A stretch of DNA of 64,000 bases from Candidatus Lokiarchaeum ossiferum. GTDB taxonomy: Archaea; Asgardarchaeota; Lokiarchaeia; Sigyniarchaeales; Promethearchaeaceae. The position numbers and the translations under genes were made by a program. The notes below the pieces were generated by a model, which was not told where the DNA came from, ran no database searches, and saw only the letters and a program-made list of their open reading frames with translations. Of the stretch, positions 7,428-64,000 are shown piece by piece. Each line of letters begins with the position of its first letter. Position 1 is the stretch's first letter. The DNA lies in contig CP104013.1 in the NCBI GenBank assembly GCA_025839675.1, positions 3,169,121-3,233,120 on the forward strand, given 5' to 3'.

Positions 7428-7442
7428 GAAAGATTTCCTTCC

Positions 7443-16207: not shown

Positions 16208-18892
16208 GTGAAAACAAAAATCGGTTTTTTTATAAATTGTTCTAGAGAGAAGAATAGTGTTCATATTGGAGATTATACAATGAATCTTTTCGTAATATTT
16301 TCTTCTTTCGAAATGATGCTTTCTTATACAAATATAGTAATAGGAATCATTCTTTTGATTAAACAAATTCATGATATAAGAAGAAATGTAATTTCTCGAA
16401 TTCTTACATTTACAAAAACATACTTTCTTTTTATTTTGATAAATTGTTGTTTATCGATTTTTGATTCACTAATTTATCCAGAAAGGACGTTATATTATGT
16501 TTATATTTTGATATTTCTAGGTATTGGAAATATAATCTTTTATTTTAAGTTAAGACCAAAAAATATTCCAAATTTGCTTTTAAAAAAACCTGAATTGAAA
16601 TCTTATCCAAGGGGAAAAGTGAGAATTGGAACAATTTTCCATGAACAAAAAATATTGAAGAAATTTAAACTTAACATTGAAGATATAAAGAGACATATTA
16701 TTATCTATGGTCAAACAGGAACAGGAAAAACATGGTTTTTAAAAAATTTTCTATATCAATTTTCAAAAAATTTTCCAGAAATACCTTTTATGTTATTTGA
16801 ATTTAAGGGAGAATATTCAGATTTATCAAGCACTATTTCGAATGTAGATATTATTCGTCCTGGAGAAAACTTTAAAATTAATTTATTTGATTGTGATATA
16901 TTTCAGAAAGAGATATATGTTGAAATATTGTTTGATAGCTTAAAATCTTGTCAAATAATTGAAGGAAATGCGGATTTTTCCCCCCAAATGGAAAAAGTAT
17001 TAGTCGATGTATTAAAAAAAGTATGTTTCGATTCAAAAAATCAATCATGGAATACATTATTTACTATTATGGACGAATATGCAGTTCAAAATGTACGAAA
17101 CATCCCAATGTTAAATCAAACAATCATAAGTATAAAGAATAGATTACGTCGATATGCCTCAGGCACACTTTCATCTCTTTTCAATTTCAGTGAAGATTCT
17201 GATCATATATCTGATTTATTATCAAAGAATTGCGTTATTGATCTTGGCCATATACTTAAATTGGGAGGATCTAAAGAGGATGTAATTTTTTTTGCAAATC
17301 TAATTCTTAAATGGATTTGGGAATTTAATATGAAAAAAAATCCATCAGATAGCCTGAACCACATCACCATTTTTGAAGATGCTTCTTATATTGCTTCAAG
17401 AAAGCTTTTAGAAACCTCACACTTATCAACTTATTTAGAGGATATTGCACTACTTTTACGAGGTAAAGGAGAAGCGCTTATAACACTAACAACTACTTTG
17501 GATATTAGCAAAAACATCATTTTAAATTCTGGAACGAAATTTTTTTTTAAATTTAATGAAAATCCTGAAGATATTAATTATTTTATTGGATTAAAAAGTC
17601 AAGATCATATTGATATTAATGCCCTTAATATTGGTTTTTGTTTAGCAAAAATCGATTCTATTTCAGAGGTTTTTCTATTAAAAGGAGAAACTCTTAGAAA
17701 TGATAAGAAGAGAATTAAAAGAAAGGAAAAAATAGTGACCCAAAGGAAGAACAATATTTCATGTAAAAAAAATAAAAAAAAAAAAGATTTCTCACAATTG
17801 GATGCAAATAACAAAGTTTTGAAATCTAAATCAAGAATTATAAATGAAGAATCTAATCATGAGGGGTGTGCAAATGAAATGCAAATAAATAAGGATGAAA
17901 CTCACTTTTCACTAACTAAATTGATACAGCAGGCAGAAGAATTGTATTTGATTGAGAATTATAGGCAATCAACAGAAATACTTTCCATTGTACTCCATGA
18001 TCTAAAAAAAAATTCAAAAAATTTCATAAATATAGACCATAATCCCGATATTATTAACGAAATAAATGATATCATTGATAAGAAAATTGAAAAAACATTG
18101 GAAAATGAAGTCCTTAGTTCCAATGAAATTTTAAACGTGTTAAATATAACAAAAAGGATAAATCAGAAATATTTTTTGAATAAAATAGAAGTTTCAAAGC
18201 CTTTGGAACAAAATCATCTCCCCTTATTAAACCAAAACCCCATGTTGAAAAAAAAAGTGGACATAATTCAAACAGAAAAGAAAATTAATAACCAGAGTTC
18301 TTCAGCTCCAGGAATCATGTTGTTTTATTTCAATATGATCACAGGACCAGAAAAATATTATGAGATCAATAAACTTAAACTGCCAGATCATATAGAACAA
18401 AAAATTGCAAAAAGTATGGACACGAATTCAGGAGAATTTTGCTTGGAAATTGAAGGTTACTTTTTTTATATAAATATTTTCAGCATAGAATCAATATGGG
18501 CGCGTGGAAAAGAAGAAATAATTCAATTAGTCATTTTTTATAATTTAACTGAATTTAATAAGAATTTTATGTTATCTCGACTAAAAAAAAAAACTCATTC
18601 TCTAATTAAAGCCCTAAAACAAAGAAAGACATTATTCTATGCATTTTATTTACTGGATCCCACCAAAATGCTTATTAAAGGTGAGGAAATTAAGAAAGAA
18701 AGCATTTTCATTAAGATGGAAGTAAAAAAAATATATAATCATTTCGTGTATCAGAATAATTCGAAACACAAAATTGAAGCCATTTTCAACAAAGAATATA
18801 GATTGGACAACATAGATTTCGAGTATTTTAATTCTATCATAGAAGAATTATTATTAATTGAAAAAAGCAACCCATCCTTCAATTCAAAATAA
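16208..18892 (+). CDS. Membrane-anchored FtsK/HerA-superfamily P-loop ATPase (VirD4/CedB/TraG-like architecture), 894 aa; true start may be the internal Met near MNLFVIF
   Basis: The first ~110 aa contain three hydrophobic helices. Walker A is HIIIYGQTGTGKTWFL and the Walker B-like motif is HITIFEDASY. The C-terminal tail is long and K/N-rich. Confidence 0.55.
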   Translation: MKTKIGFFINCSREKNSVHIGDYTMNLFVIFSSFEMMLSYTNIVIGIILLIKQIHDIRRNVISRILTFTKTYFLFILINCCLSIFDSLIYPERTLYYVYILIFLGIGNIIFYFKLRPKNIPNLLLKKPELKSYPRGKVRIGTIFHEQKILKKFKLNIEDIKRHIIIYGQTGTGKTWFLKNFLYQFSKNFPEIPFMLFEFKGEYSDLSSTISNVDIIRPGENFKINLFDCDIFQKEIYVEILFDSLKSCQIIEGNADFSPQMEKVLVDVLKKVCFDSKNQSWNTLFTIMDEYAVQNVRNIPMLNQTIISIKNRLRRYASGTLSSLFNFSEDSDHISDLLSKNCVIDLGHILKLGGSKEDVIFFANLILKWIWEFNMKKNPSDSLNHITIFEDASYIASRKLLETSHLSTYLEDIALLLRGKGEALITLTTTLDISKNIILNSGTKFFFKFNENPEDINYFIGLKSQDHIDINALNIGFCLAKIDSISEVFLLKGETLRNDKKRIKRKEKIVTQRKNNISCKKNKKKKDFSQLDANNKVLKSKSRIINEESNHEGCANEMQINKDETHFSLTKLIQQAEELYLIENYRQSTEILSIVLHDLKKNSKNFINIDHNPDIINEINDIIDKKIEKTLENEVLSSNEILNVLNITKRINQKYFLNKIEVSKPLEQNHLPLLNQNPMLKKKVDIIQTEKKINNQSSSAPGIMLFYFNMITGPEKYYEINKLKLPDHIEQKIAKSMDTNSGEFCLEIEGYFFYINIFSIESIWARGKEEIIQLVIFYNLTEFNKNFMLSRLKKKTHSLIKALKQRKTLFYAFYLLDPTKMLIKGEEIKKESIFIKMEVKKIYNHFVYQNNSKHKIEAIFNKEYRLDNIDFEYFNSIIEELLLIEKSNPSFNSK

Positions 18893-18921: not shown

Positions 18922-20136
18922 ATGTTAATTGGAATTGTAGGAAAACCTTCTTCAGGGAAAAGTACCTTCTTAAATGCAGCATGTCTAACCAATGCGAAAA
19001 CTGCGAATTATCCATTCACTACGATAAAACCTAATGTGGGTAAATCCGCTATTCGTGTGAAATGTGTTTGCAAAGAGTTTTCAGTTGATGATAATCCCAA
19101 AAATTCCCAATGCATCAATGGAGAACGTTTTATTCCAATTAAATTATTAGATGTTGCGGGATTGGTTCCAGATGCTCATTTAAATAAAGGAAGAGGAAAT
19201 CAATTTCTATCCGATCTCTCGAGAGCAGATGTATTGATTCATGTAATTGATATATCTGGAAGTTTAAATGCTGAAGGACAAGATGTCAAAAAAGGAAGCC
19301 ACAATCCAATGGATGATGTTTTATTTTTAGAAAAAGAAATCAATTATTGGTTTCGGGAGATCATTACTCGAAAAGATTGGGGAAAATTTGTTCGAAAAAT
19401 CGAGCAAGAAAAATTATCGTTCCTTGAAATGTTATTAGAGAGATTATCAGGAATTTCTATCAAAAAAGAACATATTATCAAAGCTATGCAAGAACTAAAC
19501 TTGGATTTTGAACATTTAACTATGTGGTCCGACGAAGATATCTTGAATTTTGCATCAAAACTACGGCAAGTATCAAAACCAATTTTGATCGTTGCCAACA
19601 AGATAGACACACCATATAGCGCAAAAATTTACGATAATTTAAAAACTCAGTTGAAACAAAGGATAATTCCATGCAGTGCATTGGCAGAATATTGGTTGAG
19701 GCAATTCGAACAACGTAATGTAATTGAATATTTGCCAGGAGACAATTCTTTTAAAATAACTAATCCTGATTTAATAACACCCACTGAGATAAAATCTTTG
19801 GAAGAAATTCAAAAAAAAATCCTTGACAAGTATGAGGGAACGGGAGTTCAGAAAGTTCTTAATTCTGCAGTTTTAGAAGTGCTAGATAATATTGTTGCTT
19901 ATCCTGTTTATGATCTTCATAATTTTTCAGACAAAGACGGAAATGTTTTTCCAGATGCATATATTGTGCAAAACGGAACCAAACTAAAAGAGTTTGTGAA
20001 TGATAAAATCCATTCAGATTTAGCCAAAAATTTTATTTATGGAATAAATGGGCGCACAAAAATGAGATTGGGGGAAAATTATGAATTACAAAATAATGAC
20101 GTCATTAAAATAGTATCCGCAGCAAAATCAAAATGA
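18922..20136 (+). CDS. ychF: Obg-family GTPase, YchF/OLA1-like
   Basis: G1 is GIVGKPSSGKST, followed by ANYPFTTIKPNVG. The GNQFLSDLSRADVLIHVID motif and a C-terminal TGS-like region match YchF architecture. Confidence 0.7.
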   Translation: MLIGIVGKPSSGKSTFLNAACLTNAKTANYPFTTIKPNVGKSAIRVKCVCKEFSVDDNPKNSQCINGERFIPIKLLDVAGLVPDAHLNKGRGNQFLSDLSRADVLIHVIDISGSLNAEGQDVKKGSHNPMDDVLFLEKEINYWFREIITRKDWGKFVRKIEQEKLSFLEMLLERLSGISIKKEHIIKAMQELNLDFEHLTMWSDEDILNFASKLRQVSKPILIVANKIDTPYSAKIYDNLKTQLKQRIIPCSALAEYWLRQFEQRNVIEYLPGDNSFKITNPDLITPTEIKSLEEIQKKILDKYEGTGVQKVLNSAVLEVLDNIVAYPVYDLHNFSDKDGNVFPDAYIVQNGTKLKEFVNDKIHSDLAKNFIYGINGRTKMRLGENYELQNNDVIKIVSAAKSK

Positions 20137-20430
20137 AAAAAAATTAGTTGTTTTCTTTGGATGAAAGTCCGACATATACCAGTAAAAGAATGATTAATCC
20201 AGCACTGAATAATTGTAATATCAATTTATAATTATCCATAGACCAATTAGATAATTGCATAGGTAAAAAGACCATGAATTAAAAGAAAGATCGAATAAAT
20301 AAAAAAAAATTGGTACAAAATTAAGCTAACATTCTGTAGAGCTAAAAAACTCGCAATAATAGCCAATAGAAATTTTATTACAAAAAGTTTATTACTAATT
20401 TAAAAAAAGAAATTTGAAAAATGCTAAAAG

Positions 20431-20503
20431 TGGACCTAGGGGAATTTGAATCCCCGACCCCCTGAGTGCAAGTCAGGTGCTCTACCAACTGAGCCATAGG
20501 CCC
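20431..20503 (-). tRNA. tRNA-Ala (anticodon TGC), G3:U70 present
   Basis: The reverse complement reads GGGCCTATGGCTCAGTTGGTAGAGCACCTGACTTGCACTCAGG...TTCAAAT...TAGGTCCA. It lies immediately downstream of the 16S on the same strand, in the spacer position. Confidence 0.85.
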
Positions 20504-20588
20504 TATTGAAAATAAAATTAAAAATACAAAAATTATTACAGTTCTCTAAAGAGAAAAGTAGGGTCGTTATGACCCTACTTAATGGTGT

Positions 20589-22082
<1,494 letters not shown>

Positions 22083-23660: not shown

Positions 23661-24560
23661 TTGAACATAATTGAAATATTGTCATCTTCAAACATTGAAG
23701 AGGTGTCCTTAATTTTTCAAAGCTTATTAAATCGCACTCCAATTTTAATAATAGGTTCAGATGAGTTTATCGTAGAAGAACTGATTAATTCCCTAACTAG
23801 TTTCATGCCTTTTAGAAATATATTGATATTTTTTGATGATTTTATTCATAATGACGATTATCAGGCACTGATTGAAAATGAAGAAGTTGATATTGAAACA
23901 GAAAGAAATCTTTTTATTTCCTTTCCCAATTCTGTTAACAAGGTCATTAATCTCACTGAAATCTTTTTTTCATGGATAGTTGGATGCACTGATAATGAAA
24001 GAAATCGAAAAGTAAATGAAATAATATGGAATAAATTCTATATCAATCATGATTTTTTTTTAAAAATAGATATCACAGACAATAAAATAAAGGCAGAAGT
24101 GATAGGTAGGAAATTTCACCCATTAGATTTAACATTTGAAAGATGGTTATTTCAGAATGCAATAAATCGAACTGAAATTTCCATAGAAAAAATGAAAAGA
24201 GTGATTGCAAAAAGCTATAAAAAAAGCAAGATTTCAGAAGCTGATTTAGAAGAACTTATGGATTTTTCGTTTGAAGAATTAGAGTTAAAAGAAAATATCT
24301 TAAAAAAAGAGATCATTAATTTTTTCCAGGCATGTAAAAGAACTTTTAGTGTGCTAAATAGATTAAAAAATATAGAATCTTTCGGTTTCTCTACTAAAAT
24401 TTCAACAAGGACAATTTATTCAACAATAGCCTATAAGTTTTCTTCTATTGGGAGAATTTTAGAATTTATTGAAAAAAATTGGAAAATAAATTTTTTTACA
24501 CTTCTTGATGCGAAAAAGACATCAAATTTTACTGATACATTTGAAAGTTTATGGGGATAA
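23661..24560 (+). CDS. Hypothetical protein (299 aa) co-operonic with MglB-like and MglA-like genes
   Basis: ORF with a 16-bp gap after the preceding gene. It overlaps the GTPase start by 10 nt. I recognised no motifs. Confidence 0.5.
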   Translation: MNIIEILSSSNIEEVSLIFQSLLNRTPILIIGSDEFIVEELINSLTSFMPFRNILIFFDDFIHNDDYQALIENEEVDIETERNLFISFPNSVNKVINLTEIFFSWIVGCTDNERNRKVNEIIWNKFYINHDFFLKIDITDNKIKAEVIGRKFHPLDLTFERWLFQNAINRTEISIEKMKRVIAKSYKKSKISEADLEELMDFSFEELELKENILKKEIINFFQACKRTFSVLNRLKNIESFGFSTKISTRTIYSTIAYKFSSIGRILEFIEKNWKINFFTLLDAKKTSNFTDTFESLWG

Positions 24561-25138
24561 AAATGATTGTTAACTATAATGAAAAAAAAATTCAAATCAA
24601 AATCGTTTATTATGGCTGTGCCCTCTCAGGAAAAACAACCAGTCTAAAAAGTTTATTTTCAGGCTATGGTAGAAATGATTTGTTAACTTCGATTGAAACT
24701 ACAACTGGACGTACACTTTTCTTCGATTTTGGAACACTTCAAATTAAAGGAGGAGAATGGACAGTAAAAATTTCACTCTACTCAGCCACAGGTCAAGATT
24801 TTTATGCTTCAACTAGACCCGCCACATTATCTGGAGCAGATGGAATAGTATTTATCATAGATTCACAAAAGAAATATCTATCGGATAATATTTCTTCATG
24901 GAATGAATTGAACAGATATTATCAAAACAGTCTAAATAATATGCCCTTAATTGTTTGTTTAAATAAGCAGGATCTCCCAGAATTATTGGATACGGATGTA
25001 ATAATTAAAAATCTTAACCTAAATAGCTACAATAAAGTAGAAATAATTAAAACGATTGCATCAAGGGCAGAAGATGTGCTTCAAGCTTTTAAAAGGATGT
25101 TAGCTCAAATATTTCCGAAAATAACTATCAAGAGTTGA
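24551..25138 (+). CDS. MglA-like small Ras-superfamily GTPase
   Basis: G1 is KIVYYGCALSGKTTSL, matching the MglA KIVYYGPGLSGKTT motif. G3 is SATGQD and G4 is LNKQD. Confidence 0.7.
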   Translation: MGIKMIVNYNEKKIQIKIVYYGCALSGKTTSLKSLFSGYGRNDLLTSIETTTGRTLFFDFGTLQIKGGEWTVKISLYSATGQDFYASTRPATLSGADGIVFIIDSQKKYLSDNISSWNELNRYYQNSLNNMPLIVCLNKQDLPELLDTDVIIKNLNLNSYNKVEIIKTIASRAEDVLQAFKRMLAQIFPKITIKS

Positions 25139-27278: not shown

Positions 27279-28301
27279 ATGAACAATACATATAAAATTG
27301 AGAATTATAAAATCTGTCCTGAATGTCATGGAAGTGTTATTAAAAATCTCCACGAGAATGTTTGTGTCGAATGTGGGTTAATAATAAACGATTTACAATT
27401 GATGGATAGTTACCAATATAACGAAATAAAGAATACTGATTTATCTGCAGGAGATCAATTCGTTTCAATAGGAAAGACGATCGACAATGTTTGCACTTTA
27501 GGTAGCCATATAGGATATTACTCAAGTAATTCTTTTTTTGATCACAGAAATATGATATTACCTTCTGCTCAACAAAAAAAGTTTCGTAAATTAAAAAAAC
27601 AATATTCTTTACCGATTAAAATAAAAAATCATGAAACAGATTATAGAATACTTGGCATTTTAAACAGAATAACTCAGTATATGAATTTATCAGATAATGT
27701 TAAAAATCGTAGTGCCTATTTTTATCAATCCATAAAAAAAAAAGCAACCAACATTAGAAATCATGTATCATTAATCGCATTTTGTATATATTATTCATCT
27801 CGAGAATTTTCACAGAATGCTCCAATCAGTATTAAAGAAATTTGTAAGGTTTTTACAATTATGGGCCATAGAATCAATCCAAAATTAATTATTAGAGATA
27901 GCATCACCTATAAATGCTTTATTATGAAAAATGAAAAAATAAATCGACCTCATAAAAGTGAAGACTATATTAATAGGTTTGTAAATTCAATAGTTAATTC
28001 TTCTGAAATATGTGTTCGGATGAAGAAAAAAGGGATTTCATGGACAAAGGAAGAATATAAAAGAAAATTAGAAACAAAATGCAACTCAACACTTAAATTA
28101 CTCGATCTGAATGTTCGAAGAGCAAGAAATCCATTTATTTTAGCGGGAGCAGTAATATATTGTGCTGATAAATTGATTGCAAAAGAAAATAATACAAAAA
28201 CAATTTTAACCCAAAAATCAGCGTCAAATGCAATGGAAATAGCAGAATATTCAATTAGAGATCATTACGTGAAGATTCTAAAGCCCATTTTTTTCCCTTA
28301 A
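27279..28301 (+). CDS. tfb: Transcription factor B (TFB/TFIIB)-like
   Basis: The N-terminal Zn ribbon is CPECHGSVIKNLHENVCVECGLII. The length (340 aa) and helical repeat regions are consistent with TFB cyclin folds. The sequence is divergent. Confidence 0.6.
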   Translation: MNNTYKIENYKICPECHGSVIKNLHENVCVECGLIINDLQLMDSYQYNEIKNTDLSAGDQFVSIGKTIDNVCTLGSHIGYYSSNSFFDHRNMILPSAQQKKFRKLKKQYSLPIKIKNHETDYRILGILNRITQYMNLSDNVKNRSAYFYQSIKKKATNIRNHVSLIAFCIYYSSREFSQNAPISIKEICKVFTIMGHRINPKLIIRDSITYKCFIMKNEKINRPHKSEDYINRFVNSIVNSSEICVRMKKKGISWTKEEYKRKLETKCNSTLKLLDLNVRRARNPFILAGAVIYCADKLIAKENNTKTILTQKSASNAMEIAEYSIRDHYVKILKPIFFP

Positions 28302-30660: not shown

Positions 30661-33600
30661 TTGAAAAAATTTTTGATGAAAAAAAAAATTTTTTTCTACA
30701 TCTTATTACTCACAATATTAATCAAAAATTTTGAAATGGTAGATGCATGGATATTCCCAGCTCCTCCTGCAATTATGACAGATAAGCCATGTTACTTTCC
30801 AGATGAAAATATCAATATCACAGCTGAATGGAATCTTTATTGTGATAATAATTCAATTTTTGAGATAAAAATTTTATTTTTAGAGAACCAGCCAAATAGT
30901 TATAGTTCATTAAATACCATGTTTTCAAGTAGCTTGACAACCATACCAATTCCAACCAATGATTCATCGCTACACGATTTTGAACAAGTTTCTTATTTCA
31001 CAACAGTTCTAAATTCATCAGAATTATTCAATCTTTCATTTGAGAATACAAAAGAAATTTGGGTCACATTAATCTTCTATTTATGGATTGGAGGAGAAAT
31101 AAATGCTGCTTCATTAATAAAAACATTTTGCGAAATTAGTTTACAAAAATATGAACCATCCTTTCAAAATTCATTGTCCAATTATAGCTTCGAGATAGGG
31201 GATAACTATCTATTAAATAATACGATTTTAGCATCTGAAAATAGCAAAAAAATGTATCCTACTAAGGAAGTATTGTGTATTATTACCAATGAAATCACAT
31301 GTTTATCAAAAAATATGAGTTCATTAATCCAAGATGGCCAATTAACGCTTAATATCTCAAAATTTGGACAATTATCGGTTGGAACTTATAATATTACATT
31401 TATTCTAGACTTTACCAAATTCTTTTGTAATTCAAATTTAACATTAATTATGAATATCAAGGCAAAATATGTTGAGATATCTTCCTTAAACAGTACCAAT
31501 ATCCCGATGTCGTATGATATAAAATTTTTCTTTGATTTTCAACTATTAGATCAATGGGGAAAATCGTTTATAATTGAGAATTTCACTTGGTTATTCAATA
31601 GTGATTTAAATTGGAGCGAGTGTGAAATATTAGAAGATTTTTATCGTATTTATTTTGAATTTCCAAAAATCGAAGGTGAATATTATATTAATCTAAGTTT
31701 AGATAATTTCGAATATAACGTCCAATCTTACAGTAAATATTTCCATTTCTATAAAGAGGAAGTTGATTTAAATTTGTACTTAAGAAATATCACTTTAAAT
31801 CAAGAAATATCATTTTTAGTTGAGGAAAATTTGGGTTTTTCCTTGGAAAGCATAGAAAAATCCAATTTAAACTTGGAATTCTTTGATGGGGATATTTGGA
31901 TATCTATCGACTATAATATTATTGAAAAATATCCATCTATTATGAAAATTGTAACTTCATGGTCTATTTTTGAAAATTTTCCTCAGTTTTTACAAAATTC
32001 GTATTTTTATTCCCGAATAACGTTTCTTGGTAATGAAGTACTGCTTTCTGCAACTTCTAATATACTTACGATTAACCTCCCAATAATTAATTTTACTGTC
32101 AACTCAACATCAATCATTCTGGGACAAAAAATTCAGTTTCTTTTTGAGAATTATAGCATTTACCATCCAGAATCATATTTTTGGGATTTTGGGGATGGAA
32201 TAGGATATTCCACAGAAATAAATCCTGTTTATCAATATTTATTCCCTGGAAATTACTCAATTACTTTGACAACATTGAATTTTGAGGGTTATAATAATAC
32301 ATTTAATAGAGTTGGTTATATATTGGTAGATGAGGATAGAATACCTTTAGCAAAATTTGAAATCAGTCAAAATTTAACTATTCAAAATGAAACCATTGAT
32401 TTCATATTTACTGGTGATGAAGGAAATGGACCTTGTACGTATTTATGGGATTTTGGAGATGGTTTTTCTTCAAATGAAAAAAATCCAACGCATAGGTACA
32501 ATACACAGGGCAATTATTCTATTTCCTTAACTATAATTGACTGTAATCACGATTCAAGCCAAATTATTAAAAATGATCTAGTTGGAATATTATTCGACGA
32601 ACTGCCAATTGCAAATTTTTGGTTCAAAAATGAAATTTTAATAATTAACCAAGAAATCCTGTTTTTTTATAATGGGACGATTGGTAATGGAAATGAAACA
32701 TATCTATGGAATTTTGGGGATGGAACATTTTCAATGGAAAAAAATCCAGTTAAAACTTATAATAATACGGGAAGTTATTCAATTAGTGTTGAAGTTACAG
32801 ATTGTGATGGAGATACAGATCTAATTATTCAAAATGAGATAATTAATATTGAAACAGACATATTTCCTATTGCAGATTTTAATAGTTCAAACCAATCATT
32901 TTTGACAAATGAAGAAATCTTCTTTTTTTTTAATGGAACAGAAGGAAATGGTGTGAATTTATTTGAATGGAATATCGGGAATTTAATTTTTCATGAAAGA
33001 AATCCGATAGTCGTTTTCAATGCCTCTGGATCTTATTCAATCAGATTAAGTATCATTGATTCCAACGGAGATAAAGATTCTATACAAAAAGACAACTTTA
33101 TTATTATTTTAGAAGACTTGGTTCCAGAAGTTGATTTTTTTTGTCCAATAAAACAAATAGTTGCAAATGAGGATGTTCAATTTTTTTACAATGGAACAAT
33201 TGGTAATGGAAATGAAACTTATATGTGGAATTTTGGGGATGGAACATTTTCTACGGAAAAAAATCCTGTAAAATGCTATAATAATATTGGAATTTTTTCA
33301 ATTAGGGTTGAAATTACAGATTCTGATGGAGATACAATGTTTTTACAAAAAGATGACTTTATAATTATTTTAGAAGACTTTCTTCCAGTAGCGGATTTCT
33401 ATTGTTTACAAAATAAAATTATAGGTGGAGAAGAAGTTCAATTCTTTTATAATGGGACAATGGGAAATGAAAAAATGACTTACTCTTGGGAATTTGGAGA
33501 TAATACATCCAGTAATGAAGAAAATCCAAAAAAAAGGTATTCAATTCCTGGAAACTACACAATTAAACTTAAAGTGACTGATTTCGATGGGGATATAAAT

Positions 33601-34800
33601 TTCAAACTATTATCAAATTATATTGAAGTTTTACCAGACTATTTTCCAGAAGCAGAATTTAATTATTCACAAAATACAAGTATCGCTGGAGAAAGTATTC
33701 AATTCATGTTTACTGGAAGTTTAGGAAATGGGAATCTTACTTACTATTGGAAATTTGGAGAGCATCTTAGTTCATCCTTATCAAATCCGATTATTTCGTT
33801 TGAATATCCAGGGATTTATTCTGTTTTTTTACAAATCATGGATGAAGATGGAGATATTGGAACATTGACAAAAGAAAACGTGGTGAACATTATTCCTGAT
33901 ATTCATCCTAAATCGAATTTTACTTGTTCACAAAATACAAGTATCGCTGGGGAAAGTATTCAATTCACATTTACTGGAAGCTTAGGTAATGGAAATCTTT
34001 CCTATTATTGGAAATTTGGAGAACATCTTAATTCGTCCTTACCAAATCCGATTGTTTCTTTTGAATATCCAGGGATTTATTCTGTTTTTTTACAAATCAT
34101 GGATGAAGATGGAGATATTGGAACATTGACAAAAGAAAACGTGGTGAACATTATTCCTGATATTCATCCTAAATCGAATTTTACTTGTTCACAAAATACA
34201 AGTATCGCTGGAGAAAGTATTCAATTCACATTTACTGGAAGCTTAGGTAATGGAAATCTTTCCTATTATTGGAAATTTGGAGAACACCTTAATTCGTCCT
34301 TACAAAATCCGATTGTTTCTTTTGAACATCCGGGAGAGTATTCCATATCATTGTTTATTTCTGATATCGATGGAGATATAGATTATTTAACTAAAAAGAA
34401 TTCTATAAATATTTATCCCGATCTAAAACCTATTGCACACTTCTATTTTAATAGTTCATCATTTGTCACTGGGAAGGGCATCCAGTTTTATTTTAATGGA
34501 ACAAATGGTAATGGAAATATAACTTGGACCTGGAATTTTGGGGATGGGAGCATTTCTAAAGAAATTAATCCTATTAAACAATATGAAAAACCAGGAAATT
34601 ATGTTGTTTCTATTATTGTTGTAGATGATGATGGAGACAAAGATATTTTTAGTTTAAATATAGATATCAAAAGAGATAATTGGATTGAAATCTTTCCGTT
34701 TTCGATAATAACGAGCGTTATTGGAACAATTTCAATTCTTACCAGAAAATATTGGAAGAAAAAAATTAAATTGGTTGCTCTAAATTCAATTAAGATTTAA
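30661..34800 (+). CDS. Large surface protein (1379 aa): signal peptide, ~480-aa unique N-terminal region, ~10-11 PKD-like domains, C-terminal TM anchor with KKK tail
   Basis: The N-terminus is MKKFLMKKKIFFYILLLTILI. Repeats of about 90 aa carry the PKD signature (FNGT.GNGN.TY.WNFGDG...NP...Y...G.Y.I.L.V.D.DGD). The C-terminus reads FSIITSVIGTISILTRKYWKKK. Confidence 0.75.
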   Translation: MKKFLMKKKIFFYILLLTILIKNFEMVDAWIFPAPPAIMTDKPCYFPDENINITAEWNLYCDNNSIFEIKILFLENQPNSYSSLNTMFSSSLTTIPIPTNDSSLHDFEQVSYFTTVLNSSELFNLSFENTKEIWVTLIFYLWIGGEINAASLIKTFCEISLQKYEPSFQNSLSNYSFEIGDNYLLNNTILASENSKKMYPTKEVLCIITNEITCLSKNMSSLIQDGQLTLNISKFGQLSVGTYNITFILDFTKFFCNSNLTLIMNIKAKYVEISSLNSTNIPMSYDIKFFFDFQLLDQWGKSFIIENFTWLFNSDLNWSECEILEDFYRIYFEFPKIEGEYYINLSLDNFEYNVQSYSKYFHFYKEEVDLNLYLRNITLNQEISFLVEENLGFSLESIEKSNLNLEFFDGDIWISIDYNIIEKYPSIMKIVTSWSIFENFPQFLQNSYFYSRITFLGNEVLLSATSNILTINLPIINFTVNSTSIILGQKIQFLFENYSIYHPESYFWDFGDGIGYSTEINPVYQYLFPGNYSITLTTLNFEGYNNTFNRVGYILVDEDRIPLAKFEISQNLTIQNETIDFIFTGDEGNGPCTYLWDFGDGFSSNEKNPTHRYNTQGNYSISLTIIDCNHDSSQIIKNDLVGILFDELPIANFWFKNEILIINQEILFFYNGTIGNGNETYLWNFGDGTFSMEKNPVKTYNNTGSYSISVEVTDCDGDTDLIIQNEIINIETDIFPIADFNSSNQSFLTNEEIFFFFNGTEGNGVNLFEWNIGNLIFHERNPIVVFNASGSYSIRLSIIDSNGDKDSIQKDNFIIILEDLVPEVDFFCPIKQIVANEDVQFFYNGTIGNGNETYMWNFGDGTFSTEKNPVKCYNNIGIFSIRVEITDSDGDTMFLQKDDFIIILEDFLPVADFYCLQNKIIGGEEVQFFYNGTMGNEKMTYSWEFGDNTSSNEENPKKRYSIPGNYTIKLKVTDFDGDINFKLLSNYIEVLPDYFPEAEFNYSQNTSIAGESIQFMFTGSLGNGNLTYYWKFGEHLSSSLSNPIISFEYPGIYSVFLQIMDEDGDIGTLTKENVVNIIPDIHPKSNFTCSQNTSIAGESIQFTFTGSLGNGNLSYYWKFGEHLNSSLPNPIVSFEYPGIYSVFLQIMDEDGDIGTLTKENVVNIIPDIHPKSNFTCSQNTSIAGESIQFTFTGSLGNGNLSYYWKFGEHLNSSLQNPIVSFEHPGEYSISLFISDIDGDIDYLTKKNSINIYPDLKPIAHFYFNSSSFVTGKGIQFYFNGTNGNGNITWTWNFGDGSISKEINPIKQYEKPGNYVVSIIVVDDDGDKDIFSLNIDIKRDNWIEIFPFSIITSVIGTISILTRKYWKKKIKLVALNSIKI
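33640..34450. repeat. Three near-identical ~270-bp tandem repeats (each one PKD domain) within the surface-protein gene
   Basis: Blocks beginning near 33640, 33910 and 34180 are almost identical at nucleotide level. The protein blocks FTGSLGNGNL(T/S)YYWKFGEHL...IMDEDGDIGTLTKENVVNIIPDIHPKSNFTCSQNTSIAGESIQF recur verbatim. Confidence 0.8.
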
Positions 34801-35448: not shown

Positions 35449-36675
35449 TTGAGCAATTGGGGAACAACTTTGAACAAAAATTACCTAGAACAACAATTTT
35501 ATTGCAAGGATTTATTTATTAATGAAGAATATCTCGATATAAATTATCTTCCAGAAGACATCTTGCACAGAGAACAAGAATTAATAATTTTATCAAAAAT
35601 TTTCATTAAATTAATAGAAAATCCTTTTAAAATAACAAGAAAATTGTTAATTCAAGGGGATGTGGGAATTGGAAAAACAGCGATAGCGCGTACTTTTGGA
35701 ATAATGTTGAAAAGAAGTGCGAAAAAACGAAATATAAAAATTGAAGTTGTACATATTAATTGCAGAAAAGAAAGAACACATTTTAAAATACTTCAACAAA
35801 TTTTATTGACACTATCGTATCCAGTTCCTAAAAGAGGTTTCTCTCCTCAAGAATTAATGACTATACTACAAGAATATCTTGAAAAGAATAAAATATATTT
35901 ATTCTTAGTATTGGATGAAATGAATCATATACAGAGCTCAGATTATGATTTGATATACGCTTTAACTAGATTAAATGATACTACAGGAAAAGATTCTTCG
36001 TTTCTCTCTTTATTATATATTGTTCGGGATATCACCCTTTTAAGAAATTTAGACGAATCAACCATCAGCACATTACAAGGAAATATTCTTTCTCTAAAAA
36101 AATATAATAAAATGCAAATAAATGATATTTTAGAAGAGAGAATTAATAAATCAATTCAAAAAGGAGTATTTCCATCTAAATTGACTATGATAATATCTGA
36201 AAAAATCGAAGATTCAGGAGATATTAGAAAGGGATTAAACATAGTGAGAAATGCAGTTAAAATAGCAGAAATCAAAGATAAAACAATAGTATCTTATGAC
36301 GAAATTCACCAAGCGATCAAAAATCTAATCCCAAGTCTACAGGATGATGCTTTGGGAATATTAAATATGCATCAAACAATTATACTTTTTTCAATTACTA
36401 CATACTTCATAGAAAATAAGGAAAAAAGAATTACACTAAATCAACTTAATCCTTATTATTTGAATACTTGTAAAAAATATGACCAATTGCCCAGAAAAAG
36501 CACTCAAATATGGCAAAATTTACAACAATTACGAAATTTGAATCTCATCAAAATTGTAACTATTTCTAAAAATATGAAAGGAAGGAAATCTTTTTGTTCA
36601 ATTAATGATATACCCCTGAACATTTTAAATGAAGAATTGAATCAAAAACTGAAAAATTTTTACTGTGGTAGGTGA
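35449..36675 (+). CDS. Orc1/Cdc6-family AAA+ protein with C-terminal winged helix (TTG start)
   Basis: N-terminal INYLPEDILHREQELIIL matches the initiator-type motif. Walker A is LLIQGDVGIGKTAIAR and Walker B is YLFLVLDEMNHI. YALTRLND...SLLYIVRD and KGLNIVRNAVKIAE follow, then a wH domain. Confidence 0.8.
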   Translation: MSNWGTTLNKNYLEQQFYCKDLFINEEYLDINYLPEDILHREQELIILSKIFIKLIENPFKITRKLLIQGDVGIGKTAIARTFGIMLKRSAKKRNIKIEVVHINCRKERTHFKILQQILLTLSYPVPKRGFSPQELMTILQEYLEKNKIYLFLVLDEMNHIQSSDYDLIYALTRLNDTTGKDSSFLSLLYIVRDITLLRNLDESTISTLQGNILSLKKYNKMQINDILEERINKSIQKGVFPSKLTMIISEKIEDSGDIRKGLNIVRNAVKIAEIKDKTIVSYDEIHQAIKNLIPSLQDDALGILNMHQTIILFSITTYFIENKEKRITLNQLNPYYLNTCKKYDQLPRKSTQIWQNLQQLRNLNLIKIVTISKNMKGRKSFCSINDIPLNILNEELNQKLKNFYCGR

Positions 36676-48034: not shown

Positions 48035-51000
48035 CTAAAATTTCATGGTTTGGTTCTTTTTGAAAATGTGACTTTTATAATTGATAATTATTATGGACAC
48101 ACCAAGAAGAGCCAAAACAATAATAATTGGCAAAAAGTTGTTTAAGTTTGGAATATCGTAGTAAAGATAAAATAGAAGAAATTCACTGGATGATCCTCCA
48201 TCCGAATCCCGAACGGTTATCCACAATAAGGTAAAATAATTGATCATATCTGTTTGTAATGATTGATCTCTTATATTACCTGCACGAGAATAATTCAAGC
48301 TTTCTGGGAATGAAAAAACACTACGGTGAGAATTATCTTCCGAATTATATTCAAAATTCAATGTTGGAAATTCTTGAGGATTTAATAAATTAATAAAACC
48401 ATTATAAACCAAGATTGGAACTATTGACGCGACCACTGTCAAATCCTCATTCGAATCTTCAAAAGACACTTTTTCTTCAGTAAATACAGTTAAACTGTAG
48501 GGAGTTCCCAACTTTGCTGAAATAGGATAGATTGATCCACCAGATTGTGTTGTAGAAAATTTTACATTGGAAAAAAGAGATTTTCCAAAATCTATTTCAG
48601 GAATATAATTTTGAACACTGAAAAGAAATCTATCCGGAGAAAAATCAATACATTGAGTAGAAGAATTATCTTGAGTGAAACAATAAGCATATCCCTCACC
48701 GCCCGTAGTGATTTCGGATGAATTTATTTGAATCTTGTAGAAAAAATCAGAGAGATTATGGATACTTACTCTACCTTTCAGTTCGGATAGTCTATTTGAT
48801 GCCAAATATGAATCTGAATAGATTGAAATATATGATTCCAATTGATTGTTTGACGGGCTATTCACATATAAGGCAGGTTTTGATTCAATAGAGCGATTTA
48901 TTTCTACATTATCATCTGTAATATTAGAATACCCCTGAATTTGATAAGGATAATAATAGAACTCAAATGAATCTTGGATTATTTCGGAATTTTTTGCAAT
49001 TTTCGTTACAATCCTAAGTGCTTCTTGACTGGTTGCTTCGTTCTCTAAGAAAAGATTCAGATTAAAATGATTATCAATTTTTTCGATTTGATTTGAAAGA
49101 GGACTTTCTGTACCATTTCCATAAATGATTGTGGTGTTAATGCTTTCTCCAGGGATAAATTCATCTTCAAATTTATTAATATAATTATTAAACACGTTGA
49201 TTGATATATTCAGATAATTTTCTGTTGTATTTTGTCGTTCAAAATCATGAGATATCTCAATTGGATCAAGTGGCATTAAATAATCAACCAAATTTAATAA
49301 TAATTTAGAATGATTTGAGTAATAAGTTGGATCATTATAATATGAATTACCAAAAGTATGGTAATCTCCAAAAGCAACTATTTTTCCCTTTCCATTTTCA
49401 GTCGAATCATAACATGAAACAACACACTTACCATCTATTGAGGCAAGTGCCTCTGCATTTCCAGATGTTTCAAAAGAATTTCCGAACAGAAATTTGAAAC
49501 TATCAATATTTGAAAAGATTGAATGCTGTTGATCTAAGTTCGATACAACGTAAGGTTGAACACTAGCTCCAATTGAATAATCTCTAAAATTGAAAATATT
49601 TTTTTCTGTTATACTTATCCCCGAGTTAAGAGCAGAAAAAAGAGAGTTGATTGAATCAATACACATTTTATTCGATTTTGTACCTAAAAATAAAATTGAT
49701 CCCCCTCTATTAAAGAAGTTTACAATTGTTGTACGTTCAAATTCAGAGTAAGCTAAGATTGGGGTTTGTAAAACGAGCAGATCAATATCAGCTAACGAGC
49801 GAGGTGATAGAATTTCTGCATCCGAACTTGAAAAATATCCTGAAGTCCAATTTTGCATCTTATAAGAAATACTATAGTTTTGATGCGATAAATCATACAT
49901 CATATTATAGAGTTGGATCTGAGAATAGATCGGAGATTCTGAAGGATAAAGGTCATTAAGACCATGAAAACTTTCAAAATAGATCTTCTGTTTAGGAATT
50001 GCAATAGAGATATTAATTAAAACGCTATCTAATATTCTATTTGAAATTCTATCAGTTATATTTACAGTACCAAGTCTATTACCTGCAATGGCAGAATTTT
50101 TTATATGTATTTCCAATGGAAAAGATATAATTCCATGATAATCTAGAGAAAATTCATTTTCGGGAGTATTAAATTCAATTCCGACTAAGTTAGGTAATTC
50201 TATGGAAATATGACATTCAGAGCCAGAATAGATGGAAAAATTCATTCCTTGATAATCTCCAGGAAATCGTAATAAATCAAATGGAGCATAAGGAATTTGT
50301 CTTGGAAAAAGAAGAACTTGATTATTTACACTATCTGCCTGTTTTTTTATATTGCCTAGATAATCCAAAGATTTACTGACATTAATCAACCCAGCACCTT
50401 GAGCAGCACCATATCCTTCAGGAGAGGGTCTTTCTATCACTGAAGAGCCCTTGATGAGTGCATTACGAATGGATTCAGGCGTAGATTCTGGAAAAGCTTC
50501 AAGAAGGATTGCAACGGCCCCAGCTACCATAGGACATGCCATGCTTGTACCAGAAAGAGGTATATAACCAAATTGATTTTTAGAATTAATTAGTGGGTTA
50601 GCATAAGTATAATCCAAGGAAAGAATTGAATCTAAAGAATCGGTGGAAATGATATTTACCCCCGGTGCACAAATATCTGGTCCGATTTGATTTGAAAAGG
50701 AAGGACCAACACTACTAAATGAAGCAACATGATTGTTTATATCAGTTGCACCGACAGATATCGAGTATAACCCCGTTCCAGGAGTTCCTGCAGTATAAAA
50801 ATTTGGGCCGCTATTTCCCGCGGAAGTAACGACAACAATACCCGATTCAACTGCTTTCTGAATGGCCAATGTTTCAACATTCCAAACCTCAGGAATATTC
50901 AAGCCAAAACTCATACTAATAATTTGAACTCCTATTTCCATGCACCATTCAATCGCTGCAACTACATCTGATTCTTCTATAGTTCCACTCGAATTTGAGA

Positions 51001-51883
51001 TTTTCGCATTTATAAATTCAACTTCTGGTGCAACTCCACGAAATTTTCCATTTGATGTTATGCCATTACCTCCAGCTATTCCAGCACAATGAGTTCCATG
51101 ACCATAGCAATCGTAGGTATAATCTTCAATGGAAACGGCTCTTTCGTAGGTAAAATTCTTGCTCGCAAATATTCGAGATTGTGAAGGATTTCCATCTTCA
51201 AAAAAATCGGGGTGAACAGATATACCAGTATCCATAATTGCCAATTTAATGCCTTTACCAGTATAATTTACATTTGACATGCCTATGGCATCCAACCACC
51301 AGTTTTCGTCACTAAAGGGAGCATTCCACTTAGAATTATCTGAAAAAAGGTTTTGAAATCTTGACGAGGCTAAATTAGTTCGATGATCCTGCGATAAAAA
51401 ACGAATTGATCTAAAATTTTCAATATTATCAATAACATGGGCTAAATATTGGTTTTCAACTTCAATTGAAGTACAAGGGAGAATATCATAATTATAACCA
51501 ATCTTAACTTTTGGAAACCAGGTTTTTAATAGTTCTATTCGATTATTTTTTGAAATATGGTCCTGAAAATACACTATAATTTTAACTTCAGTACTTAATG
51601 GTAAATTGTTTGAAATTTCAATCAGTTTTGAATCAATTTTATTGCTTAAACTAAAGAAAGAAGATAATTTTGATTTCGGCTCCATGAAAGATGAATCAAC
51701 ATCCTGATTGAATGATTGGAAAATAATATCCTGATTTTTTTTGAATGTATCTAATTCTCTAATTGATATTGCTTTAGAATTTCGAAAATTCAATGTGGAA
51801 ATAGTAGATATGGGTAATAAAAAGAGAATTATGAATGTTACCAATTTTTGTCTTATTCTTCTTGGAATTTGCATTTTCTTCAC
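48035..51883 (-). CDS. Subtilisin-like serine protease (S8) with signal peptide, large C-terminal extension and C-terminal TM anchor
   Basis: The catalytic triad blocks are DTGISVHPDF, HGTHCAGIAGG and GTSMACPMVAGAVAIL. The N-terminus is MKKMQIPRRIRQKLVTFIILFLL. The C-terminal helix is PIIIVLALLGVSIIII. Confidence 0.85.
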   Translation of the reverse strand: MKKMQIPRRIRQKLVTFIILFLLPISTISTLNFRNSKAISIRELDTFKKNQDIIFQSFNQDVDSSFMEPKSKLSSFFSLSNKIDSKLIEISNNLPLSTEVKIIVYFQDHISKNNRIELLKTWFPKVKIGYNYDILPCTSIEVENQYLAHVIDNIENFRSIRFLSQDHRTNLASSRFQNLFSDNSKWNAPFSDENWWLDAIGMSNVNYTGKGIKLAIMDTGISVHPDFFEDGNPSQSRIFASKNFTYERAVSIEDYTYDCYGHGTHCAGIAGGNGITSNGKFRGVAPEVEFINAKISNSSGTIEESDVVAAIEWCMEIGVQIISMSFGLNIPEVWNVETLAIQKAVESGIVVVTSAGNSGPNFYTAGTPGTGLYSISVGATDINNHVASFSSVGPSFSNQIGPDICAPGVNIISTDSLDSILSLDYTYANPLINSKNQFGYIPLSGTSMACPMVAGAVAILLEAFPESTPESIRNALIKGSSVIERPSPEGYGAAQGAGLINVSKSLDYLGNIKKQADSVNNQVLLFPRQIPYAPFDLLRFPGDYQGMNFSIYSGSECHISIELPNLVGIEFNTPENEFSLDYHGIISFPLEIHIKNSAIAGNRLGTVNITDRISNRILDSVLINISIAIPKQKIYFESFHGLNDLYPSESPIYSQIQLYNMMYDLSHQNYSISYKMQNWTSGYFSSSDAEILSPRSLADIDLLVLQTPILAYSEFERTTIVNFFNRGGSILFLGTKSNKMCIDSINSLFSALNSGISITEKNIFNFRDYSIGASVQPYVVSNLDQQHSIFSNIDSFKFLFGNSFETSGNAEALASIDGKCVVSCYDSTENGKGKIVAFGDYHTFGNSYYNDPTYYSNHSKLLLNLVDYLMPLDPIEISHDFERQNTTENYLNISINVFNNYINKFEDEFIPGESINTTIIYGNGTESPLSNQIEKIDNHFNLNLFLENEATSQEALRIVTKIAKNSEIIQDSFEFYYYPYQIQGYSNITDDNVEINRSIESKPALYVNSPSNNQLESYISIYSDSYLASNRLSELKGRVSIHNLSDFFYKIQINSSEITTGGEGYAYCFTQDNSSTQCIDFSPDRFLFSVQNYIPEIDFGKSLFSNVKFSTTQSGGSIYPISAKLGTPYSLTVFTEEKVSFEDSNEDLTVVASIVPILVYNGFINLLNPQEFPTLNFEYNSEDNSHRSVFSFPESLNYSRAGNIRDQSLQTDMINYFTLLWITVRDSDGGSSSEFLLFYLYYDIPNLNNFLPIIIVLALLGVSIIIINYKSHIFKKNQTMKF

Positions 51884-61993: not shown

Positions 61994-62422
61994 TTGATAC
62001 ATATGAACGATCCCGAATGTTTATTTTGTAAAATTCTTGCTGGTGAGATCCCTAGTTACAAGGTTTTTGAATCAGAATTTACCCTTGCTTTTTTAGATAT
62101 TGCACCTGTAAGTGAAGGCCACACAGTTGTGATTCCTAAAAATCATTATTACAATCTTCTTGATATCCCAGAAAATGAGATTCTACCATTTTTTAATGAT
62201 TTAAAAACAGTTGCAAATCTTATCAAGACAAAACTTGGTTGTGAAGGATTTAATATTGTTCAAAATAATTTCCCTGCGGCGGGGCAGGTGATTCCTCACT
62301 TTCATTTTCACATTTGGCCTCGTATTTCAAGTGATAAACTCTCTCATTTTCAGCGAAATCCTGAAATTGCAAATAAGGAAGAGATTGAATCAGTTTTTAA
62401 GAAATTTACCAATGATTATTAA
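61994..62422 (+). CDS. HIT-family (histidine triad) hydrolase
   Basis: HTVVIPK...HFHFHIWPR is the HxHxHxx histidine triad. Confidence 0.8.
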   Translation: MIHMNDPECLFCKILAGEIPSYKVFESEFTLAFLDIAPVSEGHTVVIPKNHYYNLLDIPENEILPFFNDLKTVANLIKTKLGCEGFNIVQNNFPAAGQVIPHFHFHIWPRISSDKLSHFQRNPEIANKEEIESVFKKFTNDY

Positions 62423-62939
62423 AAACCAATAATCTTATTCTTTCGTAAAAACCAATTTGGAAGTTGAATCACCTGAGTTTCATCTAAAATTAACGAAAGA
62501 TCATTTTTTACAATATATTTTGGCACAATTATTCTTCGTTTGAGAGTATCGACATAAATATGAAAAAATTTTGTATCAATTTCTTTAATTTTACCATTAA
62601 TTTGTGAATATTCTTCTCCGTACAATATCATAGTCAATAGCTTATCTTGAACATCCGACAATAAAAAAAGGGAGAGGGTGATGACTTTTTAAAATAAAAG
62701 GATGACCCTTTCATCCCAGATTTCTTCAATTTAGATATTTCCGAGTGGAATTTGAATAGATTTCAGCGTAACTATAAAAAGTCATAAATTAAACTTAAAC
62801 TTAATTTCCAATTTTTTTTCTATCGTCATCAATCTATCCACTGATCGGTATCAGAACCACAAATCGTGTTCTTAAATATGGAAAGTAATAGGACTTTTTA
62901 TATTTACTCTAAAAGATTTACATTCTGAGATTTAGAAAA

Positions 62940-64000
62940 TCAGAGAAAATTTTTGATTGAAAGTTGTTTAGGAAGACTTTGCCCGATAAATGGAAGATTA
63001 CATTGTAATAACTGCATTTTTATCTCATTGGACAAGACAAATGGAACCATATTAACAAAAGCTCGCAATAAAAGTTCTTTATACTTCCCAATATCATAAT
63101 TCTTACCGCGTTCACGATAAATTTGAACAGGTAAAACTCGATCCATTTTATTAGGGGCACAATCATCTACAATAATAAACGAGATTTTTTGTCCTGCTCC
63201 TAGCGGTAAACCCGCCATTTGTAAATGCTTGGCTGCTATTGCTTGATAGTTCAACACACTATATTGTTCTGGTCGACGAGTCAAACGAATATTTACTGCC
63301 AGATCATCAATACTAACGGTACCCGATTCTAAATATGCAACATATTTTTTAAACACAGGAATAATAGTCTGTTTCAACAGCTGATCAAAGTTATGCCTGT
63401 AAGAGGAAGAGCCAATAACACGCATTAATTCTTCTTGAAATTTTTTAATTAAAATAGGTGAATCATGCCTTCTAAGCTCTAAGCCTCGAACTTTTGCTTT
63501 TCCTGAAGGTTTTATCCCCCAATAACGATTAAGAGCACCAATTAATGGATCTGCTTTTGTTGGTAAAAAAGAAATAAACTGGAAGTAATCTTTCGTAGAA
63601 TCATAAGAAATGGGAATATTTGTTCTTTGTGTGATTTCTTGAGTAATTTTTTGACATTCTGCATGAAAATTCTCCATACTCATTGATTGAGGGGATTGGA
63701 CGTAGAGTGAATCAACAATTCCATGTAAGTAGTGAATTCCATGTTTTTCAACTATCTCCATACCATCTATCAGAAATTCTCGAGCATAAGCACAAACTGC
63801 TTGATGAGCCTCAATACGGCCAAATCGAGCATTTCGAAATCCAAGATATCCAAAGCAAACAACTAATATCCATTTCAGCGCAGTTTGCATTTGATCATAT
63901 TTCTTTTTTATTCTTCCGTGGCTGGAAATTGCCAATTTTTTGTAATGCATGCGCTTAGTTAACGGGAGACGCAAGGAAAGAGGCACAACCCCAGTTCGTT
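62940..64000 (-). CDS. Family B DNA polymerase, C-terminal portion (partial; N-terminus beyond window end); motifs B and C degenerate
   Basis: KWILVVCFGYLGF...HQAVCAYAREF...IHYLHGIVDSLYV aligns with PolB KILANSFYGYYGY...AESVTAWGR...YIDTDGLYA. The N, S and Y of motif B are replaced. In motif C only the second Asp is retained (DTD becomes IVD). Confidence 0.6.
   Translation of the reverse strand, partial: RTGVVPLSLRLPLTKRMHYKKLAISSHGRIKKKYDQMQTALKWILVVCFGYLGFRNARFGRIEAHQAVCAYAREFLIDGMEIVEKHGIHYLHGIVDSLYVQSPQSMSMENFHAECQKITQEITQRTNIPISYDSTKDYFQFISFLPTKADPLIGALNRYWGIKPSGKAKVRGLELRRHDSPILIKKFQEELMRVIGSSSYRHNFDQLLKQTIIPVFKKYVAYLESGTVSIDDLAVNIRLTRRPEQYSVLNYQAIAAKHLQMAGLPLGAGQKISFIIVDDCAPNKMDRVLPVQIYRERGKNYDIGKYKELLLRAFVNMVPFVLSNEIKMQLLQCNLPFIGQSLPKQLSIKNFL

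Follow-up and report, generated by a model that had tools for sequence, protein, structure and literature searches.

Family B DNA polymerases of the PolB2 group, known as Dpo2 in Sulfolobus, are defined by a motif C in which YxDTD has been mutated into HxxxD and by the loss of the exonuclease (Exo) motifs, and a bacterial clade related to PolB2 has the same changes (Feng et al., PMC8764526). The Dpo2 enzymes of Sulfolobus islandicus (Sis) and S. solfataricus (Sso) carry this HxxxD motif C without Exo motifs and are robust, exonuclease-free polymerases whose nucleotide incorporation is roughly on a par with that of the replicase Dpo1; their insertion opposite lesions is poor, and their extension of mismatched or lesion-paired termini is highly efficient (PMC8764526). 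The dpo2 gene is damage-inducible and is the sole polymerase gene essential for damage-induced mutagenesis (PMC8764526; passages of PMC7390963). In this work, a gene located at the end of a 64,000-nucleotide stretch of DNA (contig CP104013.1, positions 3,169,121 to 3,233,120 of the forward strand; the whole of this stretch is called the window below) was compared with these enzymes. Judged from sequence, this gene, at 62940-64000 on the minus strand, very probably encodes the C-terminal half of a PolB2-group polymerase belonging to the Dpo2 orthologue group, most likely a catalytically competent extender.

Assignment to the PolB2 group

The reading frame of the gene stays open for 352 codons from the window edge to a stop codon at 62940-62942, with a GC content like that of its surroundings (~30% in the window). 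Complete or near-complete PolB2 relatives have 711-867 aa, from which a full length of 770-840 aa is expected for the window protein, with ~370-490 codons of its 5' part beyond the edge. By the same relatives, ~52-57% of the protein lies off-window, instead of the N-terminal two thirds estimated in a preliminary description of this DNA. The features of the gene that are referred to below are the following.

62940..64000, minus strand: 3' part of polB2, encoding fingers, palm, thumb and C-terminal tail; recognised from the open reading frame (ORF), homology, an AlphaFold2 (AF2) model and Foldseek
63837..63875, minus strand: motif B (Pol II region) in its PolB2 form, K42-WILVVCFGYLG-F54, followed by RNARFG; located by alignment to 5mdn, 1s5j and 8s84
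63708..63731, minus strand: motif C (Pol I region), Y90-L-H92-G-I-V-D96-S97, with HxxxD for YxDTD; located by HMMER alignment and conservation in homologues
63516..63530, minus strand: equivalent of the KxY motif, N157-R-Y159-W-G161, opposite canonical KKRYA
63462..63488, minus strand: palm/thumb element R171-GLELRRH-D179, opposite canonical RGLEIVRRD
62943..62966, minus strand: predicted PCNA-interacting (PIP) box Q345-LSIKNF-L352, the last eight residues; located by sequence in a tail of low model confidence

On sequence comparison, the product of 62940-64000 was unambiguously recognised as a family B DNA polymerase, of which it forms the C-terminal part. The Pfam model DNA_pol_B (PF00136; cut-off, 23 bits) gave a score of 59.8 bits and E=2.9e-16, with profile positions 116-449 of 453 covered, and the NCBIfam models NF004416 ('type B DNA-directed DNA polymerase', E=3.4e-56) and NF004418 (E=7e-50) outscored the 'DNA polymerase I' models of PolB1/PolB3 type by far. 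HMMER matches to PDB entries (E=1e-10 to 1e-15) were obtained with P. calidifontis PolB (5mdn, E=7e-15), Sso Dpo1 and Thermococcales enzymes, the solved PolB1/PolB3 structures being 20-23% identical to the window protein.

An AF2 model of the 352 residues, built on the family alignment, reached a mean predicted local distance difference test (pLDDT) of 87.5 and a predicted template modelling score (pTM) of 0.80, and was disordered only at loop 51-60 and in the last 14 residues (pLDDT <50 for 339-352). When this model was compared with the PDB by Foldseek, Thermococcales PolB and Pol alpha came out on top, with 320-350 aligned columns, E~1e-14 and a probability of 1.00. The template modelling (TM) scores, 0.5-0.63, were moderate, as is usual when a fragment has several domains. 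Homology and this model together show an intact fingers-palm-thumb fold.

A protein search of 5.8 billion sequences recovered 242 homologues, with E=3e-123 for the best of them. Metagenome proteins of 56-59% identity headed the list, followed by proteins of Lokiarchaeota, Helarchaeota, Hodarchaeales and Promethearchaeota (36-46%) and then by many from bacterial metagenome-assembled genomes (NC10, Binatia, Acidobacteriota and Anaerolineales; ~35%). Searches of genomes and metagenome contigs detected the nearest database sequence, which was 63% identical to the window protein and likewise cut by an edge, and a protein-seeded metagenome scan found this relative again, plus a 31%-identical Freyarchaeota-like locus. 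The 40-mer at 63941-63980 had no exact match in the metagenome contigs. The window PolB2 is a new sequence in a known family, and no sequence that was detected exceeds 63% identity to it.

The curated table of PolB2 operons of Timinskas et al. (2025, PMC11791011) was used as a sequence anchor, and its 'HGIVDS / IVD' entries match the window protein. The Lokiarchaeota entry, ALKWILVVSFGYLGFRNARFGRVEGHQSVCAYSREIILQTRDMAHQKGFEVLHGIVDSMWL, is scored there as 'IVD' with the operon type iRadA-PPB2-PolB2 (PMC11791011), and the window string from motif B to motif C, ALKWILVVCFGYLGFRNARFGRIEAHQAVCAYAREFLIDGMEIVEKHGIHYLHGIVDSLYV, was ~62% identical to it by a direct count over the two strings. Many haloarchaeal entries, which include HGIVDSIWV, are clearly similar to the same string. 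Three homologue accessions, KXB04320, NVM31027 and MCX8060977, had no match among the rows listed from the supplement of Timinskas et al.

The sequence used for S. islandicus Dpo2 comprised its first 399 residues, taken from the supplement of PMC11791011 and reaching only to motif C; it was 41% identical to the window protein over 99 residues by BLASTP (E=1e-19), in an alignment that ends at LHSIIDSLVV. The PolB2 type of motif B, ALKW(I/L)LV..FGY.G..NA.FG..E.H, was found in both, as ALKWILVVCFGYLGFRNARFGRIEAH in the window and AIKWILVASFGYLGYRNSLFGKIEAY in Sis Dpo2, and the haloarchaeal and Lokiarchaeota entries of the curated table agree with it as well.

In a neighbour-joining distance tree of the C-terminal half only, the window protein and the homologue P0001 grouped with sequences of Promethearchaeota and Lokiarchaeota inside an Asgard subclade, with Helarchaeota and Hodarchaeales next outward and bacterial and other archaeal PolB2 after them. 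A Freyarchaeota polymerase with an intact YADTDC was sister to the PolB2 clade, and PolB3 and PolB1 formed the outgroup. This order agrees with what has been published on basal PolB2 with an intact DxD (PMC11791011). The DxD-intact polymerases of Freyarchaeota (loci L002 and L008), on the sister branch to the clade of the window protein, are 31-32% identical to it; they keep YADTDC and have the motif B KMMLVVIYGYSG, the IVD of the window protein being the derived state. DxD-intact PolB2 have been reported from TACK archaea only (Timinskas et al., PMC11791011). The two Freyarchaeota-like loci (L002, at 2275-4485, and L008), both with PolB2-like polymerases and an intact YADTDC as motif C, may extend this basal group in Asgard archaea.

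With the PolB2 of Sulfolobus, haloarchaea and Lokiarchaeota, the window protein shares HxxxD, KW.LV..FGY.G..NARFG, NRY(W/Y)G and RGxExRRxD. It differs from Sulfolobus Dpo2, the smallest PolB2 known (PMC8764526), in the much greater length expected for it, and from most PolB2 in its canonical C-terminal PIP box. The fingers-palm-thumb architecture is common to it and to PolB1/PolB3 (Pfu, KOD, 9°N and P. calidifontis PolB; Sso Dpo1), but YxDTD, the N, S and Y of motif B and the Lys of KxY are missing from the window protein, an insertion of 8-9 residues precedes NRY, and the exonuclease catalytic residues are gone in its relatives. Eukaryotic Pol zeta (Rev3) is similar in mode only, as a proofreading-deficient B-family extender of mismatched or lesion-paired termini, an analogy drawn for PolB2 by Feng et al. 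(PMC8764526); in contrast to the window protein, it keeps the canonical DTD, and it has no specific sequence affinity to it.

Motif conservation and predicted catalysis

In the HMMER alignments to solved PolBs, motif B of the window protein, KWILVVCFGYLGF, was opposite KVMANAMYGYLGW and KILANSVYGHMGF, revealing changes of N to V, S to V and Y to F with retention of the phosphate-contacting Lys, K42. Motif C, YLHGIVDS, aligned to VIYGDTDS, with Y replaced by H and the first D by I, and with the second Asp, D96, retained. Around it, AHQAVCAYAR aligned to AESVTAFAR and DSLYV to DSLFV. Further on, the Tyr of the KxY equivalent was retained and its Lys was replaced by N, a PolB2-specific insertion of 8-9 residues (PTKADPLIGAL) being located just before NRYWG. 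Where canonical PolB1 and PolB3 have YxDTD and KxxxNSxYG, the window protein has YLHGIVDS and KWILVVCFG.

These alignments agree with most of what the preliminary description had read from the letters, namely the loss of N, S and Y from motif B (where V, V and F were found), the replacement of YIDTDG by YLHGIVDS in motif C, and the retention of AxxVxAxxR and of LY after motif C; its motifs had not been mis-registered, and no intact DTD was found. Its statement that the first catalytic Asp was lost is right in that this Asp is an Ile, but it overstates the change because D96 is the metal-coordinating Asp: according to structural work, the second Asp of DTD binds the metal and the first points away from the active site (PMC8764526).

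The same description had called the motifs degenerate, which is contradicted by residues that are invariant or nearly so across the family. Motif patterns were counted in 134 sequences out of the 242 homologues, and residue conservation was scored in an alignment of 40 sequences. KW.LV..FG[YF].G was present in 128 of the 134, and DxD in motif C in none of them; motif C was H(G/A)(I/L/V)(V/I/T)D(S/C), with A for H in one Hodarchaeales cluster. In the 40-sequence alignment, K42, W43, L45, V46, F49, G50, Y51, G53, N56, F59, G60, H65, R73, D96, G172 and D179 were invariant, and H92, V95, N157, Y159, G161, R171, R176 and R177 were conserved in at least 90%. All of these residues are carried by the window protein. 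As judged by these alignments, the departures from the canonical motifs are a fixed signature of the PolB2 family and no random decay.

This conservation bears on the idea of a pseudogene in decay, derived from a canonical replicative PolB, to which the non-canonical motifs of the gene and its truncation by the window edge could point. However, the frame is open over all 352 codons, the AF2 model is confident and the terminal PIP box is conserved, and every departure is shared with hundreds of archaeal and bacterial homologues, with all the family-invariant residues in place. The open frame and the family-wide sharing of the departures effectively refute a pseudogene, which was rejected as having next to no probability.

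A second alternative is a truly inactivated PolB paralogue that kept its fold and has a structural or regulatory role only, such as that of a scaffold binding DNA or PCNA in a complex with iRadA and PPB2. It would agree with the replacement of the first Asp of DxD, of N, S and Y in motif B and of the Lys of KxY, and also with the inactivity predicted for PolB2 by Rogozin 2008 and Makarova 2014 (passages of PMC4104785). Nevertheless, the same substitutions are present in Sulfolobus enzymes whose activity equals that of Dpo1 (PMC8764526), D96, K42, Y159 and RGxExRRxD are invariant or nearly so in 40 diverse members, which is hard to explain without catalysis, and the Asp and Tyr of motif A are present in every relative covering that motif. 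The inactivation prediction has been called erroneous (Timinskas et al. 2025, PMC11791011), and the non-catalytic inference is a superseded reading for the PolB2 family. We consider an inactive paralogue unlikely for the window gene. The preliminary description had proposed just such a paralogue; it had found the right group, PolB2 having historically been listed as 'inactivated', but its non-catalytic inference followed the older prediction.

A catalytically competent polymerase is better supported, because the window protein keeps every family-invariant residue, and mismatch or lesion extension is the most likely function on this analysis. Some points weigh against this reading. The biochemistry comes from Sulfolobales enzymes only, which are ~41% identical in the core, and an earlier study, cited in passages of PMC4104785 and also in favour of an inactive paralogue, found very weak activity of recombinant Sso Dpo2. 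In addition, the N-terminal ~55% of the protein is off-window and its state was judged from relatives of 43-63% identity, and the PolB2 of a Helarchaeota locus (L006) is solitary, neither a Rad51-like nor a DUF8156 gene being called up to 6 kb away.

Motif A, the D(K/R)GG loop and the exonuclease region all belong to the off-window part. All the homologues that reach motif A keep xDFxSM(Y/F)P and the D(K/R)GG loop. In P0029, the closest N-terminal relative (63% identical in the overlap), DRGG is found for YEGG and motif A is intact as LDFTSMYP; its ExoII is NGDELLFPYL, with Asp changed to Leu, and ExoI was not alignable. From the ExoII of this relative, the proofreading domain of the window protein is predicted to be dead. 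A separate observation on this half concerns Lokiarchaeota contig JARRLT010000215.1 (L003, 3228-5617), where PolB2 was called as two genes separated by 17 bp, an N-terminal domain of 200 aa and a remainder of 589 aa; a frameshift, a genuine split or an error of assembly could each account for this.

Catalysis by the window enzyme would take place via the second Asp of motif C, D96, together with the motif A Asp, which is off-window and is present in all the relatives that cover it, and His92 or the D(K/R)GG loop may compensate for the absent first Asp, as the literature suggests. By extrapolation from Sulfolobus Dpo2, the enzyme would have no role in genome replication and would extend mismatched or lesion-paired primer termini in translesion synthesis, once the nucleotide opposite the lesion has been put in by a different polymerase. 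The Y to F and N to V changes in motif B and the K to N change in KxY would plausibly relax the sensing of the primer-terminal pair, leading to tolerance of distorted ends.

The C-terminal PIP box and the partner genes

The C-terminal peptide of the window protein, ...SLPKQLSIKNFL, finishes with QLSIKNFL, which follows the PIP consensus Qxx[ILM]xx[FY][FYLW] at a disordered C-terminus and predicts binding to PCNA. The 63%-identical relative (L001, the same as L007) ends in QISIKKFF directly before its stop codon, after a linker that is not conserved. Other close relatives end, also at the stop codon, in QSDIRQFF or QKSLRAFL, others carry QKPISAYF, QKDLACYL or QKTIGTFF near the end, and the more distant Asgard members have (K/R/S)xxLD(K/R)(F/Y)(F/L/M). 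Among the stop-to-stop segments of at least 100 aa in the window, 1 of 56 had the PIP pattern at its end, the density of the pattern being 5e-4 per residue. Only a small share of PolB2 have PCNA motifs, which in most systems are on iRadA instead (Timinskas et al., PMC11791011). From the sequences compared here, an Asgard subclade appears to carry the PCNA motif on the polymerase itself, and the terminal QLSIKNFL box of the window enzyme would most likely tether it directly to PCNA.

The genes that accompany PolB2 were followed in related loci. In L005 (Promethearchaeota), a Rad51-like gene without Walker A (326 aa), a DUF8156 gene (89 aa) and PolB2 (867 aa) are arranged in this order, and L003 (Lokiarchaeota) has the same arrangement plus one insertion, with its PolB2 split. 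The order is iRadA-PPB2-PolB in L002 (Freyarchaeota), and in L008 an inactivated RadA is directly upstream of the polymerase. The small DUF8156 proteins (PPB2, arCOG07300) share an MGRTVxSF N-terminus with PPB2 of S. islandicus. Since the Helarchaeota PolB2 of L006 stands alone, the iRadA-PPB2-PolB2 operon is not universal.

Downstream of the window polB2, neither iRadA nor PPB2 was found; the only same-strand ORF there (62419-62661, minus strand, 80 aa) lies 280 bp downstream of polB2, and beyond it is a HIT gene on the opposite strand. This ORF was considered as PPB2 and rejected, as it has no Pfam match and no MGRT N-terminus. The partner genes, if present, would be upstream, past position 64000. 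By comparison with the related Asgard operons, the enzyme would probably work with iRadA and the PPB2 trimer, encoded immediately upstream and off-window.

Host, neighbouring genes and significance

The window is chromosomal and archaeal, with a 16S rRNA gene, tRNAs, thermosome, ribosomal proteins L3/L4 and ABCE1. It also encodes class I LysRS, NFACT, ThyX, NIF3, Orc1/Cdc6 and a TFB-like protein. This gene content and the taxonomy of the best homologues point to an Asgard archaeon as the host. A small GTPase of the Arf/Ras/Roc family (24551-25138, plus strand, 195 aa) and a leucine-rich-repeat protein (1215-1895, minus strand, 226 aa) were also detected; both are signature proteins of a eukaryote-like kind that is typical of Asgard archaea, and they fit the taxonomy of the PolB2 homologues.

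These neighbours are also relevant to a third alternative, in which the gene would encode the polymerase of a mobile element or virus (a casposon, a protein-primed PolB or a provirus) integrated into the chromosome. Mobile elements of archaea commonly carry family B polymerases, and horizontal transfer of PolB2 has been described, also to bacteria (PMC11791011). Against such an origin, the gene has housekeeping neighbours (HIT, NIF3, ThyX, NFACT, LysRS, ABCE1 and L3/L4) and the GC content of its surroundings, the protein has no affinity to casposon or protein-primed PolB, and the PolB2 closest to it are encoded in iRadA-PPB2 operons on Asgard chromosomes. As nothing around the gene within the window indicates a mobile element, this origin was rejected as extremely improbable, and a chromosomal PolB2 of the Asgard host is preferred.

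Two other genes of the window have counterparts in the damage response of Sulfolobus, where paralogues of Orc1-2 and TFB3 control the DNA-damage response that induces dpo2 (passages of PMC6061795 and PMC6101594). They are an Orc1/Cdc6 homologue (35449-36675, plus strand, 408 aa), ~26 kb from polB2, and a divergent TFIIB/TFB-like protein with a weak match to the TFIIB repeat (27279-28301, plus strand, 340 aa). At 26-35 kb from polB2, no link to it is implied.

The far end of the window has a large ORF of 1818 aa (1971-7427, minus strand) with no Pfam or PADLOC match, located within a block of ~40% GC and strong GC skew, the rest of the window having ~30%. Directly upstream of it is an 858-aa FtsK/HerA-like ATPase gene (7443-10019, minus strand) with weak PADLOC matches to mad8 and HerA, and both could form one operon. 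A second HerA-like gene, of 894 aa, is found at 16208-18892 (plus strand); together with the genes at 1971-10019, it may represent a large uncharacterised system or a foreign island.

The 16S rRNA gene (20588-22082, minus strand) is followed by tRNA-Ala(TGC) (20430-20503, minus strand). No 23S gene adjoins it, the next gene being an Obg/YchF-like GTPase (18922-20136, plus strand), so that the rRNA genes appear to be unlinked. Two proteins of secreted or surface type are also encoded, one of 1379 aa with at least nine PKD domains (30661-34800, plus strand) and the other a 1282-aa S8 subtilase (48035-51883, minus strand).

A further proposal is that the long Asgard PolB2 with its own PIP box is a distinct PCNA-tethered extender that bears on the origin of the specialised or inactivated B-family modules of eukaryotes. 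The eukaryotic link is drawn from taxonomy and the PIP box only, and we regard the proposal as very unlikely. It has been hypothesised that the inactive C-terminal half of Pol epsilon derived from a PolB2-like protein (PMC4104785). If the proposal were true, Asgard PolB2 would bear on eukaryotic modules such as this inactive half of Pol epsilon, and on Pol zeta, with which PolB2 shares an extender role.

For annotation, the gene would be described as a PolB2 (Dpo2-like) translesion or extender polymerase, rather than as an inactive pseudo-polymerase. It adds to the picture of an Asgard PolB2 subclade whose members are already in published alignments and operon tables, and makes Asgard PolB2 a candidate for biochemical testing.

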